From contig CAIZMI010000044.1 in NCBI GenBank assembly GCA_903934015.1, positions 5,027-69,026 on the forward strand: DNA of 64,000 nt, given 5' to 3'. The stretch's first letter is position 1, and each line of letters begins with the position of its first letter. The position numbers and the translations under genes are program-made. The notes beneath the pieces are model-generated. The model saw only the letters and a program-made list of their open reading frames with translations. It was not told the DNA's origin and ran no database searches. This document shows, in pieces, positions 7,862 through 48,346 of this stretch. The DNA comes from an uncultured bacterium (GTDB taxonomy: Bacteria; Patescibacteriota; Andersenbacteria; UBA10190; CAIZMI01).

Positions 7862-7950
7862 TCCCTCCCCACCTCCCTTTGAAAAAAGGGAGGAGTCGAC
7901 GCGAACATTCCCTCCTTTATTCAAAGGAGGGCGAGGGTGGATTTGTCCGG
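7861..7950. repeat. REP-like composite element: copy A (AATCCCTCC-N4-CTCCCTTTGAAAAAAGGGAGGAG) plus inverted variant B (CCCTCCTTTATTCAAAGGAGGG..GGTGGATTT). It fills the whole convergent intergenic gap.
   Basis: Perfect hairpin CTCCCTTT-GAA(A/T)AA-AGGGAG. The same element recurs at 12436-12581 and 33347-33385. Confidence 0.8.
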
Positions 7951-12435: not shown

Positions 12436-12581
12436 TTCCCTCCTTTATTCAAAACGCACACGCATCGGCGGTGTTTCGCTGATGCTCAAAGGGCGGGGGT
12501 GGATTTAGTTTATGGGCCTGTTGTTGCATATTGCCAGAATCCCTCCCCTCCTCCCTTTGAATAAAGGGAGGAGACGCGACG
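12436..12581. repeat. REP-like element B (with a ~37-nt insertion in the loop) plus element A, at the rarA/nagB convergent junction
   Basis: TTCCCTCCTTTATTCAAA...AAAGGGCGGGGGTGGATTT and AATCCCTCCCCTCCTCCCTTTGAATAAAGGGAGGAGACGCGACG. Confidence 0.8.
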
Positions 12582-14230: not shown

Positions 14231-14257
14231 TGGCAATTCATGAATTGCCCCTACGTG
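14231..14257. repeat. palindromic element GGCAATTCATGAATTGCCCCTACGTG (family 2)
   Basis: Perfect 18-nt palindrome. Copies at 17395-17420 and a variant at 24821-24863. Confidence 0.75.
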
Positions 14258-17340: not shown

Positions 17341-17394
17341 AATGGTGATGAAAGAAAAAAATTGTAAAACTATCGGGTACACCCGGTCGTTGTA

Positions 17395-17420
17395 GGGGCA
17401 ATTCATGAATTGCCCCTACG
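17395..17420. repeat. palindromic element GGGGCAATTCATGAATTGCCCCTACG (family 2)
   Basis: Between the leuS stop and the next gene start. Confidence 0.75.
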
Positions 17421-20212: not shown

Positions 20213-20904
20213 TGCAAGCTGTTATTTTGGCGGGGGGATTAGGAAAGCGCTTACGTCCTATTACGGAAGATGTTCCAAAACCATTGGTTCCTGTTTGTGG
20301 CAAACCGGTTGTTGAATATACACTCGAGAATTTGCCGGCAGAAATAATTGAGGTGATTTTTGTGATTGGCTATAAGGGCGAAATGATTAAGGATTTATAC
20401 GGTCATAATGCTTTTGGAAAAAAGATTTCTTATGTCGTGCAGGAGCAACAACTGGGCACAGGGCACGCTGTAAAATGTGCCGCTTCGTTAGTGGATATGC
20501 CTTTTATTTTGCTTTACGGTGACGATATTTACGGAAAAGAAGGATTACAGAAGTTGGTGAAGCGTGAATGGGCTTTATTGGCACGTAGGGTGGAACATCC
20601 GGAAAGATTTGGTGTGCTTAAATTAAACGAAGACGGGACGGTTAGTGATATGGTGGAAAAACCGAAAGAATTTATTTCCGATTTGTCCTGGGTGGGTGGG
20701 GCAAAGTTCCAGGCGGAGTTTATGCAAGTTGAAACACCGCTTTCTCAGCGTGGCGAATATGAAGTTCCCGATATGGTGAATGTCTTGATTAAACAAGGAA
20801 AAAAGTTTTATCCGGAATTGACGGATCTTTGGTTGCCAGTAAATACGCTAGAAGAAGTTGCTGAAGCGGAACGGGTGATTAAGGATGTAGGGGGTAGGCA
20901 GTAG
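20212..20904 (+). CDS. sugar-1-phosphate nucleotidylyltransferase, paralog 2
   Basis: MQAVILAGGLGKRLRPIT (GxGxRL signature). The last 6 codons and the TAG stop lie inside a family-4 repeat. Confidence 0.7.
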   Translation: MQAVILAGGLGKRLRPITEDVPKPLVPVCGKPVVEYTLENLPAEIIEVIFVIGYKGEMIKDLYGHNAFGKKISYVVQEQQLGTGHAVKCAASLVDMPFILLYGDDIYGKEGLQKLVKREWALLARRVEHPERFGVLKLNEDGTVSDMVEKPKEFISDLSWVGGAKFQAEFMQVETPLSQRGEYEVPDMVNVLIKQGKKFYPELTDLWLPVNTLEEVAEAERVIKDVGGRQ

Positions 20905-20913
20905 GGTGTAGAG
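20887..20913 (+). repeat. family-4 element GTAGGGGGTAGGCAGTAGGGTGTAGAG providing the C-terminus (..DVGGRQ) and stop codon of the upstream gene
   Basis: One-nt difference from the leuS copy (GAGTTG vs CAGTAG) creates the in-frame TAG. Confidence 0.7.
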
Positions 20914-20940
20914 ATGTTCCGACGACAACCGATCCCGCGC

Positions 20941-20980
20941 CCACTCCCGAAGTGGACCCGCTGGGCCACTTCGGGAGTGG
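20941..20980. repeat. 15-bp-stem hairpin CCACTCCCGAAGTGG-N10-CCACTTCGGGAGTGG
   Basis: Same arms recur at 56882-56983 with a 71-nt structured insert. Confidence 0.6.
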
Positions 20981-21002
20981 TACGGTTAGTGTGTTGTAAA
21001 TA

Positions 21003-21029
21003 AAAAAACCACCGGTCAGGGTGGTATTA
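21003..21029 (-). terminator. rho-independent terminator (ACCACCCTGACCGGTGGT + T8) for the minus-strand gene ending at 21037
   Basis: 6-bp GC stem followed by a U-run on the minus strand. Confidence 0.6.
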
Positions 21030-21036
21030 TTTGGGA

Positions 21037-21537
21037 TCATTGCACTTCAAAAAATTTGTAGCCAACGAGGTCGCTTCTGAAATCATAGGGTTTTTCAATC
21101 AATACCGCCCTAAGACCAGAAATATTCGCTAACGCACACGCAAATACATGAAAGTCCACTATCGAAATCACCCCACTTATGGATTTCCAATTGGAGCCGC
21201 ATGGCCACCTTATCAGCTCATTATCAATACTGGAAAATCCTATGTTAAATTTATTGGGAAAAATGGGTTGACCACCAATAATTGTGGTTCCAGGTCTAAG
21301 GATACGTAGAAGAAAGTCAATGTTGCACTGGCAATCATCAGTGCTTAATGCGCGCTTGAGTTTATTGTTTCGAAAGAGTTGCATTGCCCAGAACAGGGCC
21401 TCAATCATATCGTTCGTTCGACATTGTTGGGATTTGGAAATTAGTCGAACAGCTGCCACGAAATGGTCAGATATGGTAGTAAGCCAATTACTGATCACGG
21501 GTCCAAACAATTTTCCGGTTTCCGCGGACGGTGACAT
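21037..21537 (-). CDS. hypothetical protein, divergent from the RAYT gene
   Basis: ORF track; no recognisable motif. Confidence 0.35.
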   Translation of the reverse strand: MSPSAETGKLFGPVISNWLTTISDHFVAAVRLISKSQQCRTNDMIEALFWAMQLFRNNKLKRALSTDDCQCNIDFLLRILRPGTTIIGGQPIFPNKFNIGFSSIDNELIRWPCGSNWKSISGVISIVDFHVFACALANISGLRAVLIEKPYDFRSDLVGYKFFEVQ

Positions 21538-21645
21538 GTAATGTCTCCCTGTGATTGAAATGAACGTGACTGTGGTATTCGCACAGCCGTCACGTCAACA
21601 TTGACGTAACTTGAACATGTTACGCTAAACCGTATAAAGTCAACC

Positions 21646-21668
21646 TGCTCCACCTACGAGGTGGAGCA
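21646..21668. repeat. REP hairpin TGCTCCACCTACGAGGTGGAGCA
   Basis: 6-bp stem CCACCT/AGGTGG with ACG loop. Additional small hairpins lie 20-60 nt upstream. Confidence 0.75.
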
Positions 21669-21696
21669 AAGGTACTCCCTGGTATATGATAATAAT

Positions 21697-22365
21697 ATGC
21701 GGAAAGATATTCTAACTAATAGTGAAGTTTACCATGTGATGAATAAAAGTATCGCTGGATTTAAAATATTTCAGTCAGAGAAGGACTTTTTGCATATGAG
21801 AAACTTGATTAGGTATTACACATCTGCGGGTGTCCGACAAAAGTATTCACAATTTGTACGTGATGTAAATATTCACAAAGATGATATTGAAGAAGAAATC
21901 AATAAACATTTATTGCAGAAAGAAAAAACAGTGCAAATAATTTGTTATTGTTTAATGCCTACGCATTTTCATGTGGTAATAAAACAATTACAGGATCATG
22001 GTATCGAAAAATTCATGTCGGATGTTTCCAATGCATATACACGTCATGTGAATATAAAAATTGAACGAAATGGGCCATTGTGGGTAGGGCGTTTTCAGAG
22101 TGTACTTGTTGATAATGACGATTATCTTACCCATTTAACGCGGTATATCCATCTAAATCCTGTTTCTGCTGGATTAGTTAAAAAAGCCTCTGGTTGGCCC
22201 AATTCTTCTTTTTTGGAGTATGTAAATCGTGATAAGGTGAGGTTTCCGGTGTGCGATTATTCAGGCTTTATTTCTTTTTCGGAAAAACAATACGAAAAAT
22301 TTACAAACGATCACGCGGATTATCAAAAGGAGCTTACACGAATAAAAGCTCTTTGTTTAGAATAA
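21697..22365 (+). CDS. REP-associated tyrosine transposase (RAYT; IS200-like HuH-Y1 family)
   Basis: HuH motif CYCLMPTHFHVVI and Tyr motif RYIHLNPVSAGLVKKASGWPNSSF, which align with E. coli YafM VVLPEHMHCIW / YIYINPVKHGWV..WPFSTF. Start at ATG 21697; track start GTG 21661 lies inside the REP. Confidence 0.8.
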   Translation: MRKDILTNSEVYHVMNKSIAGFKIFQSEKDFLHMRNLIRYYTSAGVRQKYSQFVRDVNIHKDDIEEEINKHLLQKEKTVQIICYCLMPTHFHVVIKQLQDHGIEKFMSDVSNAYTRHVNIKIERNGPLWVGRFQSVLVDNDDYLTHLTRYIHLNPVSAGLVKKASGWPNSSFLEYVNRDKVRFPVCDYSGFISFSEKQYEKFTNDHADYQKELTRIKALCLE

Positions 22366-22382
22366 GGTTTATTACCTTGCAC

Positions 22383-22423
22383 CACCTACGAGGTGGAGCA
22401 AGGTTGCTCCACCTCGTAGGTGG
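22383..22423. repeat. inverted REP doublet CCACCTACGAGGTGG-AGCAAGGTTGCT-CCACCTCGTAGGTGG (BIME-like)
   Basis: 20-2-20 near-perfect palindrome 18 nt after the RAYT stop. Confidence 0.8.
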
Positions 22424-22439
22424 TAAGCAGGTCGTAGAA

Positions 22440-23810
22440 TTATTTGCCGCGGCCTACCGAATGATACAAGAAACCTTTTTCTTCCATTTCTTTCGGATTA
22501 AACATGTTTCGGCCGTCGATGATTAGTGGCTGGTGAAGGGAAGCGTGAACCTTTTTCAAATCGGTTTTTTTAAATTCATCCCAGTCGGTAACGATAACCA
22601 GAGCATCGGCATTAATTGTGGCATCCATTGCAGATTTTACATAAGTGATATTTTCATCGCCGAGCACTTCGTGTGCCTTTTCCATTGCTTGCGGATCATA
22701 AGCTTTAATAATCGCACCTTCACCACGCAGGTGATTGATAACCGTCACGGCAGGCGCGCTGCGCATATCATCAGTATTTGGTTTGAAGGAGAGTCCCCAA
22801 ATGGCAATTGTCTTTCCTTTGACAATCCAAAGCGCTTGCTCAATTTTCTTAATGAAAATCGCTTTTGCTTCCTCATTAATTTTCTCAACCGCTTTTAAAA
22901 TTCCAAAATCGTAATTTATTTCTTCCGCAATCTTAACGAACGCCGAGACATCTTTTGGAAAACAGCTTCCGCCGTATCCGACACCGGCTTTCAAGAAAGA
23001 AGAACCAATGCGTTTATCTAAACCCATACCGTAGGTTACTTCTTCAACATTAGCATTTGTTAATTCACAAATTGCGGCCAAGGCGTTGGCGAAAGATATC
23101 TTTGTGGCTAAGAAAGAATTGGAAGCGTGTTTGATCAGTTCGGCGGAATTAATATCGGTTGCGATAAATGGCGCTTTGATTGGCGCGTAAATTTCACGCA
23201 TAATTTTTTCCGCGCGTTCGTTTTCGGCACCGATAACAATGCGATCGGGGTTTAAGAAATCGTAGACAGCCGTACCTTCGCGTAAAAACTCCGGGTTACT
23301 AACAACGTCGAATTCAATGCCGTGTGGGTTGTAGGAGCGCAAAGTTTCTAGAACTTTTTCACCTGTTTGCACAGGCACAGTGCTTTTGTCGACAACAACT
23401 TTGTATTCGGTGGCCACCTCAGCAATTTGGCGGGCAGCGTTTGCAACATAAGACAAGTCCGCTTTTCCGTCCGGTCGTGGTGGGGTATTAACTGCAATAA
23501 AAATAACCTCTGTATTTTTTACGGCTTCCGGCAGATTAGTAGTAAACTCGAGGCGTTTTGCCTTGATATTTTTGGCAATAAGTTCCTCAATCCCCGGTTC
23601 ATAAATCGGGCTGATCCCTTTCTTGAGTTTTTCGACCTTGTCGGCGTTGCGGTCGACGCAAACCACGTGGTGACCAATTTCAGCTAAACAAGCGCCAGAT
23701 ACGAGGCCTACATAGCCCGTACCAATAACGGAAATGCGCTTCCTGGCTTTAGATTCCTTTGAAACGGCCTTCTTCTCCTTTGTAACGCGTTTTATAGCAA
23801 TTTTAGTCAT
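22440..23810 (-). CDS. ugd: UDP-glucose 6-dehydrogenase (NDP-sugar dehydrogenase)
   Basis: ISVIGTGYVGLVSGACLAEIGH Rossmann motif and catalytic GGSCFPKD. Lys-rich N-terminal extension. Start at ATG 23810. Confidence 0.85.
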   Translation of the reverse strand: MTKIAIKRVTKEKKAVSKESKARKRISVIGTGYVGLVSGACLAEIGHHVVCVDRNADKVEKLKKGISPIYEPGIEELIAKNIKAKRLEFTTNLPEAVKNTEVIFIAVNTPPRPDGKADLSYVANAARQIAEVATEYKVVVDKSTVPVQTGEKVLETLRSYNPHGIEFDVVSNPEFLREGTAVYDFLNPDRIVIGAENERAEKIMREIYAPIKAPFIATDINSAELIKHASNSFLATKISFANALAAICELTNANVEEVTYGMGLDKRIGSSFLKAGVGYGGSCFPKDVSAFVKIAEEINYDFGILKAVEKINEEAKAIFIKKIEQALWIVKGKTIAIWGLSFKPNTDDMRSAPAVTVINHLRGEGAIIKAYDPQAMEKAHEVLGDENITYVKSAMDATINADALVIVTDWDEFKKTDLKKVHASLHQPLIIDGRNMFNPKEMEEKGFLYHSVGRGK

Positions 23811-23851
23811 AGGGGAAGTGTAGGGAAAAATGGCGAGTGTGACAACCAGCA

Positions 23852-23893
23852 CCGCTCACGGAGCGGAGCAACCTTGCTCCGCTCCGTGAGCGG
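23852..23893. repeat. REP-variant doublet CCGCTCACGGAGCGG-AGCAACCTTGCT-CCGCTCCGTGAGCGG
   Basis: Same architecture as the 22383 doublet (ACG loop, AGCAA-SS-TTGCT spacer) but a different stem. Confidence 0.75.
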
Positions 23894-23924
23894 ACAAAGG
23901 TTCATCGTTCTCAATTTCAGAACT

Positions 23925-24806
23925 ATGTCATACAATTCAAATATGAACGAACAAGCACCACGGATAAATCCGGACACGGAAGAACAGCCAGAAACCGGAT
24001 TGGAATTGGAAAAATTGGAAACAACAGAAACGCCGGAGATGCCAGCGGATTTTGTCGAGCCGGAAGGAAAATCGGGCGGATGGGGCGAGGTCGTAGAAAA
24101 CAAAGAGCTTGGTGTCAGATATCGCGAAAAAGTGATTGAATTGCCGAAGCATCGACAGGAAGAAACAGGGGTGAAGAGAATTCGTCGAAGGGAGATGTTA
24201 CCGCCTTTTCCGGAAGGGTTGTTATTACAAGAGGTAGACGATAAAAATCTCCAATATTGGAGTGGTGATGAGGCGTTCGATGAGGTATATAATTTTTTTA
24301 CCTCCAACGGCTACCCCTCGGAAGGTACCCTTGTTCATATTATGAATTTTATGCGAGAAAATGATCAGGAAAAAATCCAAAAAAATATTCGAGAGGGACT
24401 ATATTTTCAAGAAATTCACGCCGAAAATGAGTATGGTTTTAGATTGTGTCCCGATAGGACATATGTGGGAAAATTTACAACACCCGTTTTTGTATTTGGA
24501 AACCGCAATAGTGTTTTGAATGAATATGTTGATTCAGTGATTAATGATCCTGTGTCAGAGTGGGGTGTTGAATTTGAAGGAAAATGGGCAATACGGTTAG
24601 GAAAACATGAGTATTCATGGCCGGAAGTTAGCCATGATTTAAAAAGACTAAGAAATAGAAAACACATTGATGCGGGGGAGGTATCCCTGCCATATTTTGG
24701 TCGTCTAGAAAATTCTTCAAAACGACAGCTTCGTTGGTGTCACGCGGAATTGGCTTTGGTTCCTACCAAGCGCAGTCTGAATGTTTTGTTTTTCGAGACG
24801 GAATAA
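23925..24806 (+). CDS. hypothetical protein
   Basis: ORF track (track start 23874); acidic N-terminal region, no domain. Confidence 0.4.
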   Translation: MSYNSNMNEQAPRINPDTEEQPETGLELEKLETTETPEMPADFVEPEGKSGGWGEVVENKELGVRYREKVIELPKHRQEETGVKRIRRREMLPPFPEGLLLQEVDDKNLQYWSGDEAFDEVYNFFTSNGYPSEGTLVHIMNFMRENDQEKIQKNIREGLYFQEIHAENEYGFRLCPDRTYVGKFTTPVFVFGNRNSVLNEYVDSVINDPVSEWGVEFEGKWAIRLGKHEYSWPEVSHDLKRLRNRKHIDAGEVSLPYFGRLENSSKRQLRWCHAELALVPTKRSLNVLFFETE

Positions 24807-33346: not shown

Positions 33347-33385
33347 AAATCCCTCCTAACCTCCCTTTGAATAAAGGGAGGAAAC
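33347..33385. repeat. REP-like element A (AAATCCCTCCTAACCTCCCTTTGAATAAAGGGAGGAAAC)
   Basis: Third copy; at the convergent junction downstream of mfd. Confidence 0.75.
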
Positions 33386-48143: not shown

Positions 48144-48277
48144 AGTAAAAAAATTTGAGACAGATAATTTTTCAAAGGTTCCGCCGAAAGAGGCGGAACC
48201 TTTTTGAAAATTTCTAAATATTTAAGAAAATAATCAATGGTTCAATGTTTAAATTGTTTTGGTAATTGAAAACAATT

Positions 48278-48312
48278 AACACCCCATTGTTCAAGGTGAA
48301 CAATGGGGTGTT
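48278..48312. promoter_or_regulatory. extended palindrome AACACCCCATTGTTCA-AGG-TGAACAATGGGGTGTT, 35 nt upstream of comEC
   Basis: Core TTGTTCA-N3-TGAACAA plus flanking CCATT/AATGG arms. Confidence 0.55.
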
Positions 48313-48346
48313 AATTGTGTCATAAGAATTGTACGATTATTAAACT

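Follow-up and report, generated by a model that had tools for sequence, protein, structure and literature searches.

Results

The locus

We analysed a 64,000-nucleotide stretch of contig CAIZMI010000044.1 (hereafter the window) from an uncultured bacterium of the Andersenbacteria, and in particular a gene in it for a protein resembling the tyrosine transposases associated with repetitive extragenic palindromes (REPs), or RAYTs, together with the hairpin-forming palindromes that lie on both of its sides. The gene order is two nucleoside triphosphate (NTP)-transferase genes, orf166 (on the opposite strand), the RAYT-like gene and a UDP-glucose dehydrogenase (UGDH) gene. The RAYT-like gene and UGDH form a convergent pair, and UGDH and a gene for a 287-aa protein form a divergent pair. 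Named homologues of both UGDH and the RAYT-like protein come from Andersenbacteria, Parcubacteria and Patescibacteria, which supports a host belonging to the candidate phyla radiation (CPR). No paralogue of the RAYT-like gene was found within the window, and no tnpB-like neighbour was seen among the genes around the locus. The principal features are as follows.

21697-22365, plus strand: gene for the RAYT-like Y1 HUH protein, 222 aa, with the HUH histidines H90/H92, the tyrosine Y150 (in RYIHLNP), W129 and S170/S171
21642-21673, no strand assigned: upstream REP-like hairpin, AACC-TGCT-CCACCT-ACG-AGGTGG-AGCA-AAGGT
22374-22432, no strand assigned: downstream REPIN-like doublet, two inverted REP units with the common centre AGCAA-GG-TTGCT
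23852-23893, no strand assigned: second doublet, CCGCTC-ACG-GAGCGG-AGCAA-CC-TTGCT-CCGCTC-CGT-GAGCGG, in the divergent intergenic region between UGDH and the gene for the 287-aa protein

A Y1 HUH protein of RAYT type

The open reading frame (ORF) at 21697-22365 had been recognised in a first-pass annotation of the sequence by an HUH motif and a block around the catalytic tyrosine, and both are present: the protein contains CYCLMPTHFHVVI with H90/H92 and RYIHLNPVSAGLV...GWPNSSF with Y150. It is of RAYT size, as had been stated, with a measured length of 222 rather than 223 aa. In a Pfam search the protein matched Y1_Tnp (PF01797) at 31.2 bits, above the gathering score of 23. It scored 65.1 bits (E 6e-18) with the NCBIfam model REP_Tyr_transpos (NF047646), for which the curated equivalog cut-off of 80 was not reached; the corresponding scores of relatives were 61-66 bits. 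The sole other NCBIfam listing was FlgF at E 0.2, with no match to transpos_IS200 even at E<=1, and no Pfam match to a helix-turn-helix (HTH) domain was detected in the protein.

A sequence search of the PDB returned a single match, 4ER8, the E. coli TnpA-REP protein bound to a REP hairpin, and in the alignment H90/H92 correspond to H59/H61 and Y150 to Y115. The same structure was the best Foldseek match (E 2e-8, TM score of 0.71 on the target) of an AlphaFold2 model that was built on 70 homologues (pLDDT 92.7, pTM 0.89). The next matches were the ISDra2, IS608 and IS200 transposases, all of these, 4ER8 included, with a Foldseek probability of 1.0. Residues H90, H92, Y150, W129, S171 and N154 are invariant in the 70 homologues, and P155 is found in at least 90% of them. 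The tyrosine motif, RYIHLNP, has the form Y---NP, the signature of class 2 (RAYT) proteins, whereas class 1, to which IS200 belongs, has Y---Q (PMC6006769). These results support the assignment of the 222-aa protein to the Y1 HUH enzymes of the RAYT type (class 2, Y---NP) and not to the IS200 TnpA proteins, in agreement with the first-pass annotation.

The gene is flanked by a hairpin and an inverted doublet

The upstream element forms a perfect 10-bp stem with a 3-nt loop (21646-21668), and as single-stranded DNA (ssDNA) it folds at -12.2 kcal/mol (z -5.5). Its end lies 32 nt from the ATG, and the downstream doublet begins 16 nt from the stop codon; the elements had thus been correctly located on the two sides of the gene, but at distances of 30 and 18 nt that needed correction. 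The 15-mer CCACCTACGAGGTGG, which had been taken as the repeat unit, is indeed present, but the unit is longer, the upstream element extending over 21642-21673. Exactly three copies of CCACCTACGAGGTGG occur in 64 kb, at 21650-21664 (plus), 22382-22396 (plus) and 22409-22423 (minus), compared with a mean of 0.03 matches in shuffled sequences, and there is none in the window beyond the flanks of the gene.

The downstream doublet is a perfect palindrome over 22381-22424, with arms of 21 nt and a 2-nt centre, and sits between the convergent stop codons of the RAYT-like gene and UGDH. As ssDNA it folds into one long hairpin at -28.9 kcal/mol (z -10.9). The second doublet is likewise a perfect palindrome (arms of 20 nt, centre of 2 nt) that folds into one long hairpin, at -28.4 kcal/mol (z -11.7); its different stem, its ACG loop and its AGCAA..TTGCT centre were found as first described. 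Our results support the view that these doublets are REPIN-like, that is, inverted pairs of REPs that make one long hairpin. The definition of REPINs, and the compensatory (mirrored) changes in their arms, have been published (PMC3116915). An Rfam search of 20800-24100 gave only spurious sub-threshold matches of miRNA hairpins to the doublet.

The foot of the hairpin is AACC/GGTT. There is no 5' GT[AG]G, and GTAG is found only inside the apex in the CGT-loop orientation. We considered the GTAG within CCACCT-CGT-AGGTGG as a canonical guide sequence and rejected it, because many family members have no GTAG (for example, CACCCC-N-GGGGTG) and because the orientation of the loop flips between orthologous sites.

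Hairpins and gene co-vary throughout the family

A word-indexed search yielded 1,586 homologues of the protein, and an exhaustive search (E<=1e-30) gave 131 clusters at 50% identity; the family is centred on CPR/Patescibacteria and Omnitrophota. We surveyed the flanks of 85 loci, made up of 80 metagenomic loci of relatives (40-48% identity) and other family loci. Hairpins were detected on both sides of the gene in 62 of the 85, the upstream one at a median distance of 31 nt from the start codon and the downstream one at 13 nt from the stop codon, and this pattern held whatever the neighbouring genes. The inner 7 nt of the stem were the same on the two sides in 45 of these 62 loci, compared with 1.7% between different loci. 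That a stem is shared by the two sides of a gene but not between loci shows that gene and hairpins evolve as one unit. Among the 142 hairpins there were 122 distinct stems, a turnover indicating that in the middle of the stem it is pairing rather than sequence that is conserved. The apex CAC(Y)(Y)...(R)(R)GTG was kept in 113 of the 142, and at the base of the stem 5' ACC and 3' GGT occurred together in 67 and singly in 89 and 83, respectively. Inverted doublets like those of the window were seen in about eight family loci. This family-wide co-variation of gene and flanks identifies the hairpins as the cognate partners of the RAYT-like protein, as the first-pass annotation had suggested.

The survey also bears on the supposition that the hairpins serve as ordinary transcription terminators or stabilise RNA, their proximity to a transposase-like gene being fortuitous. 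The downstream doublet does lie between two convergent stop codons, a scan listed the upstream hairpin as terminator-like on the minus strand, and the genome has many other intergenic hairpins. Against this, 45 of the 62 loci carry one and the same stem at both flanks of the gene, regardless of the neighbours. The scan listed neither doublet as terminator-like, and in the sequence both lack a T-run after them; the terminator pattern of A-run, G+C-rich hairpin and T-run does occur at 21008-21025 and at the empty site in the relative L108, described below. Furthermore, the second doublet is upstream of both of its neighbours, no Rfam family was matched, and the complete conservation of the downstream doublet at a synonymous divergence (dS) of about 1 is far above terminator-level constraint. 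We therefore regard this explanation as extremely improbable.

The cassette has a fixed position and is absent from other syntenic relatives

Orthologues of the gene lie at the same syntenic site in two relatives, L006 (GCA_030647555.1; 76% identical) and L101 (72% identical). Among the three genomes dS is 0.9-1.5 and the ratio of nonsynonymous to synonymous divergence (dN/dS) is 0.10-0.13. The 44-nt downstream doublet is 100% identical in the window, L006 and L101, although dS is about 1. The upstream hairpin is kept at the orthologous site in both relatives, and that of L006 differs only by a flipped loop, ACG to CGT (window 21656-21658, L006 9959-9961), the arms being unchanged. Inversion of a loop or centre between unchanged arms is expected from a flip of the whole palindrome or from hairpin-templated switching.

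Empty sites were identified in two relatives at a greater distance, L108/L109 (a 1.02-Mb contig) and L110, which share the backbone (UGDH 78% identical) and from which the RAYT-like gene, the hypothetical gene orf166 and all the doublets are absent. The spacer between the NTP-transferase gene and UGDH in L108 and L109 has only an A-run, a G+C-rich hairpin and a T-run. The spacer of L110 (11369-11561) has a different long inverted repeat with arms of roughly 38 nt (GAAAAGCAAGCGTCAAAGCGTTTTCCTTTTGAGTG...). The segment missing from these relatives is about 1.5 kb long and takes in orf166 and other sequence outside the hairpins. The empty sites and the fixed position together point to a lineage-specific acquisition (or a loss in the outgroup), followed by vertical inheritance under selection.

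The second doublet is of the type that flanks a sister gene

A sister gene encodes P0123, the full-length form of P0007, a RAYT-like protein 60% identical to that of the window. The doublet downstream of this gene, CCGATCACGGAACGG-AGCAA-GG-TTGCT-..., is near-identical to the second doublet of the window (L100, L104), and the right half of a doublet of the same type lies upstream of the gene at the contig end. The second-doublet type thus flanks P0123 on both sides and is the cognate type of the sister lineage. In the window itself no Y1 gene adjoins the second doublet. The first-pass annotation had linked several palindrome families to the RAYT system; this applies to the second doublet, which has the same architecture and is of the sister-gene type, but not to the other families of the window, which are unrelated in sequence.

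The second doublet of L006 has its centre flipped from CC to GG (window 23872-23873, L006 12300-12301), and it carries a C-to-A change mirrored by a G-to-T change, with which the long stem stays perfect and each of the small hairpins is mismatched. A further mirrored change, G to A and C to T, is found in L100/L104. The doublet upstream of UGDH is absent in L108, L110, L111 and L101, and its flanks are too diverged or rearranged relative to L101, L108, L110 and L111 to place insertion boundaries. P0123 and the window are from the same sample series; their G+C contents are 40.6% against 43%, and they have no palindrome families in common in 10 kb. The P0123 contigs of five independent assemblies (L104 1-40, L105, L106, L107 and L100) end inside the upstream doublet of this second family, and they run unbroken through the downstream doublet. 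The contig ends could reflect a repeat or structural polymorphism upstream of the gene.

A tentative third doublet was noted on the other side of the RAYT-like gene.

20941-20980, no strand assigned: possible third doublet, CCACT-CCCGA-AGTGG ... CCACT-TCGGG-AGTGG, imperfect, downstream of the NTP-transferase gene

It folds as ssDNA at -22.9 kcal/mol, and z over the three doublets ranges from -6.8 to -11.7. Its CAC...GTG apex and CCCGA loop recur in the flanking hairpins of the family loci L010 and L064; its region gave no alignment with L006.

REP dispersal occurs in the family but not visibly in the window

In one lineage of the family the hairpins have multiplied. The genes of L036, L047 and L052 are 98-100% identical and lie in differing contexts, and the block common to them is exactly hairpin-gene-hairpin, 728 nt. 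In L036 (1-16044) the sequence CCACTTCGTAGGTGG is found 18 times within 16 kb, each time on the strand of the gene. The 18 same-strand copies and the near-identical genes in differing contexts show a capacity for REP proliferation in the family, in at least one lineage. The copies of CCACTTCGTAGGTGG in L036 often form direct pairs at a spacing of 44 nt, and short ORFs are numerous in this region.

Elsewhere copy numbers are low. In 43 long family loci the commonest flanking 14-mer had a median of 2 occurrences, and a copy more than 200 nt from the gene was found in only 15 of the 43. These counts fit the published values for Group 1 RAYTs, which have about 12 occurrences of the flanking 16-mer per replicon versus about 57-140 for Groups 2 and 3 (PMC5581495). 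Besides the flanks of the gene, the 64 kb holds only two such elements, the lone second doublet and the tentative third, neither of them more than 1.5 kb away. A scan of a genome collection for CCACCTMSKAGGTGGAGCAA, a collection without the source genome and GCA_030647555.1, gave 12 single hits in unrelated phyla, where about 9 were expected by our own estimate from the pattern and the collection size; the copy counts given here cover the window. The first-pass annotation had proposed an active REP-proliferation machinery. This was not borne out, given that there are no copies past the gene neighbourhood in 64 kb and that the elements hold the same syntenic positions across nearly saturated synonymous sites. 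The RAYT system of this lineage is essentially static and looks dormant, with no sign of current proliferation in the 64 kb.

One could envisage that the whole unit of hairpin, gene and doublet, roughly 790 bp, is an autonomous IS200-like insertion sequence (IS) that still transposes and whose hairpins are its subterminal ends. As in IS200/IS605, the gene has a hairpin close by on either side, at a constant distance family-wide; the cassette is absent in otherwise syntenic relatives; the block common to L036, L047 and L052 is exactly REP-gene-REP in different contexts; the P0123 contigs of five assemblies break at the upstream doublet; and Group 1 RAYTs resemble ISs more than any other RAYT group does, Group 6 excepted (PMC5581495). 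In contrast, the window has one copy and no paralogue, and the gene occupies an identical position in three genomes at dS of about 1 and dN/dS of about 0.1. The missing segment of about 1.5 kb extends past the hairpins to include orf166 and other sequence, and the protein has Y---NP rather than Y---Q, with neither a tnpB nor an NCBIfam transpos_IS200 match. A search of plasmids and phages gave weak, partial matches to the core only (22-55% identity), on 15 of 72,556 plasmids and 1 phage, and thus no evidence of carriage on mobile replicons. We consider an IS of this kind unlikely.

Relationship to known systems

REPtrons are reportedly the subject of Nunvar 2010, Bertels & Rainey 2011, Ton-Hoang 2012 and Messing 2012, and are said to correspond to class 2 of Quentin et al. 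2018. The system described here resembles the REPtrons of E. coli (YafM/4ER8) and Pseudomonas in its Y1 HUH core with Y---NP, 4ER8 being the top match in both sequence and fold, and in being single copy, vertically inherited and under purifying selection. It also resembles them in that imperfect-palindrome repeats of its own bracket the gene, with more than one REP subtype nearby, and in that inverted doublets form one long hairpin with mirrored changes. It differs in the elements of recognition. The GTAG foot and residues W94, Q95, E100, H101 and R104 are the recognition criteria in E. coli (PMC6006769), whereas the hairpins of the window have no 5' GT[AG]G foot and the GTAG-reading residues Q95, E100, H101 and R104 are replaced in the alignment with 4ER8 by V130, S135, V136 and D139; only one residue that contacts GTAG is kept, W94, as W129. 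Further differences are a score below the NCBIfam RAYT cut-off, a length of 222 aa that includes an insertion of roughly 30 aa between helix A and strand 2 and a helical C-terminal tail, and a host that is from the CPR and not from the Proteobacteria. There are three flank copies in the window, with none elsewhere in the 64 kb, compared with tens to hundreds per replicon in Groups 2 and 3. The protein is not a canonical RAYT (subclass 2.2/Group 2).

A second comparison is with subclass 2.1, which is Group 1 of Bertels and the TIRYT/TIRtron (Di Nocera 2013; Quentin 2018). The published motifs of this subclass are NH[VYF]H, W[EQ], YIELNP or Y[IV]HLNP, an SS tail and a distal HTH-like C-terminal domain (PMC6006769). 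The likenesses are the size class (median 238 aa, and about 220-240 aa in the present family), the motifs Y[IV]HLNP, LWEGRF and W..SS (LW[VE]GRF and W..SS[FY] in the family), low-copy flanking repeats, the possibility of self-complementary or dimer flanks, and a wide, patchy taxonomy. The family differs from subclass 2.1 in having THFH versus NH[VYF]H, in the insertion between helix A and strand 2, and in its tail; two 2.1-like plasmid proteins aligned over the core only (23-25% identity) and left the tail unaligned. The GGGGWSAS terminal inverted repeat (TIR) motif, a TIRYT trait, was not found within 3.8 kb of the RAYT-like gene. In addition, Quentin et al. describe no REP-like structures for subclass 2.1, whereas the clade of the window has very regular flanking hairpins.

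The third comparison, with IS200 (subclass 1.1), reveals a common arrangement, one Y1 gene between subterminal hairpins near its ends, and the same fold. The differences are Y---NP versus Y---Q, 222 aa versus about 150 aa, the lack of an IS200 NCBIfam match, a single copy at a fixed syntenic site, and left and right hairpins of the same sequence instead of distinct left and right ends.

By its motifs the family most resembles subclass 2.1 (Group 1), with an insertion of its own. We tentatively raise the possibility, about which we have more doubt than confidence, that the proteins of roughly 220 aa constitute a large undescribed RAYT-like subclass in CPR/Patescibacteria and Omnitrophota. Such a subclass would be marked by its own insertion of roughly 30 aa and tail and by hairpins built unlike canonical REPs, with CAC(Y)(Y)/(R)(R)GTG at the apex and AACC/GGTT, not GTAG, at the foot. 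In most lineages its gene would have been kept for a very long time with the two flanking hairpins alone and without a REP population. If so, the enzyme would be retained for a host or self-regulatory role at its own locus, REP bursts such as that of L036 would be exceptional, and the published statement that subclass 2.1 has no associated hairpins would be contradicted.

Sequences adjoining the gene

A putative promoter element lies between the upstream hairpin and the RAYT-like gene.

21680-21693, plus strand: possible extended -10 element (TGGTATATGATAAT), 3-8 nt 5' of the ATG, read from the sequence by eye

The strings TGGTATAAT, GGTAAAAT and TATAAT are similarly placed between hairpin and ATG in relatives, and it is possible that TGGTATATGATAAT drives the RAYT-like gene. 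An element 3-8 nt from the ATG would imply a leaderless mRNA or one with a very short leader, with the upstream hairpin outside the transcript. In a sigma-70 scan promoter-like sites were no commoner than in shuffled sequences, and none was listed for the RAYT-like gene; TGGTATATGATAAT is missing from the list because no -35 match is present.

The position of the palindromes relative to such signals is relevant to the view that they are duplex operators for a dimeric regulator, either the Y1 protein or another, with no cleavage or mobility involved. The AGCAA-NN-TTGCT centre and the perfect two-fold symmetry are operator-like. The upstream hairpin adjoins a conserved -35-like TTGAC in the promoter of the divergent orf166 and is just 5' of the -10-like element of the RAYT-like gene, the second doublet is within a divergent promoter region, and the mirrored substitutions keep the dyad symmetry as well as the hairpin. 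Yet the outer stem is almost fully different between lineages while pairing is kept (the 122 stems among 142 hairpins), a pattern typical of a folded strand and not of a duplex site with a specific sequence. The invariant catalytic HUH and Tyr residues in a gene under purifying selection, and the 18 same-strand copies in 16 kb of one lineage, also speak against operators, and we hold this explanation, taken by itself, to be very unlikely. A duplex operator role may coexist with the REPtron-type function proposed in the Discussion.

The leader/promoter region of orf166 (21037-21537, minus strand; hypothetical) at 21541-21640 (minus) is 84% identical across the three genomes (counterparts at about 9840-9950 in L006 and about 2815-2920 in L101), whereas the alignment of the coding sequence among the same genomes reaches just 44% nt (37% aa). 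The leader has a hairpin, GGCTGTGCGAATACCACAGTC, with a compensatory change of T-A to C-G in L101, and a palindrome, GTTACGTCAA(T/C)GTTGACGT; no Rfam match to the leader was found. From its sequence, the leader could be an attenuator or regulatory RNA.

The window is rich in other palindromes. Perfect hairpins of at least 8 bp gave 66 hits (about 35 distinct sites) in the window versus 4-16 in Markov shuffles. The perfect hairpin CCTCCCTTTGAA(T/A)AAAGGGAGG occurs in 4 copies (7872-7893, 7910-7931, 12548-12573 and 33360-33381) and ATCCCCG...CGGGGAT in 3 (14961, 31842 and 62590), and a perfect palindrome with 22-nt arms is found at 48272-48318. A palindrome with a zero or short loop, GGGCAATTCA|TGAATTGCCC, at times extended to GTAGGGGCAATTCATGAATTGCCCCTAC, is repeated in intergenic DNA (window 14232-14249 and 17392-17419; L006 2230-2251 and 13568-13587; L101 about 5150). 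Its sequence is unrelated to the hairpins that flank the RAYT-like gene, and its form suggests a site bound by a dimeric regulator. The families GGGCAATTCATGAATTGCCC, CCTCCCTTTGAAnAAAGGGAGG and others of the window also have no sequence in common with the gene-flanking hairpins, so that nothing links them to the RAYT-like enzyme.

Discussion

We consider it likely that the locus is a REPtron-type cassette in a CPR (Patescibacteria) genome, consisting of a single-copy, vertically inherited class-2 Y1 HUH gene and its cognate hairpins, with one unit upstream and an inverted pair downstream. If it works like E. coli TnpA-REP and the IS200/IS605 transposases, the protein would bind the hairpin form of the elements on ssDNA. 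Recognition would be through the conserved apex, CAC(Y)(Y)/(R)(R)GTG, and through the foot, AACC/GGTT, and the strand would be cleaved and rejoined by means of the HUH-bound metal and Tyr150. Such cleavage and rejoining could copy hairpins or doublets into new intergenic sites. The cassette would have entered once between the NTP-transferase genes and UGDH and would then have been kept with its hairpins under purifying selection. The position of the upstream hairpin within a divergent promoter region would allow self-regulation of the gene by the enzyme, and the downstream doublet could act as an insulator or terminator without a T-tract between the convergent genes.

Several points weigh against this interpretation. 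The RAYT-like protein falls under the NCBIfam RAYT cut-off, and the locus has neither the GTAG foot nor the GTAG-binding residues of canonical RAYT-REP recognition. The orientation of the loop (ACG or CGT) is not fixed relative to the gene, which is unexpected if an asymmetric cleavage site needed it, and the hairpins are placed where terminators or operators would be, at a convergent gene pair and at divergent promoters. The ssDNA binding and cleavage that we ascribe to the protein are drawn from analogy, and dispersal of the repeats outside the 64-kb window is possible.

Work on RAYT/REP systems has been confined almost entirely to Proteobacteria and Cyanobacteria, and in the literature searched we found no paper that links REPs or TnpA-REP with CPR taxa. 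The present work extends the arrangement of a RAYT with cognate hairpins to the reduced genomes of Patescibacteria and to Omnitrophota; it is a known kind of system in a new bacterial group. For the annotation of CPR metagenome-assembled genomes, it means that such "transposase" calls represent conserved, single-copy genes rather than signs of active mobile DNA. The simple conserved hairpin provides a substrate for biochemical tests, and the L036 lineage is suited to the study of activity in the family. Genomes with the cassette, syntenic genomes without it and one lineage with a REP burst together make up a comparison series suited to asking what role a RAYT plays where hardly any REPs are there for it to move.

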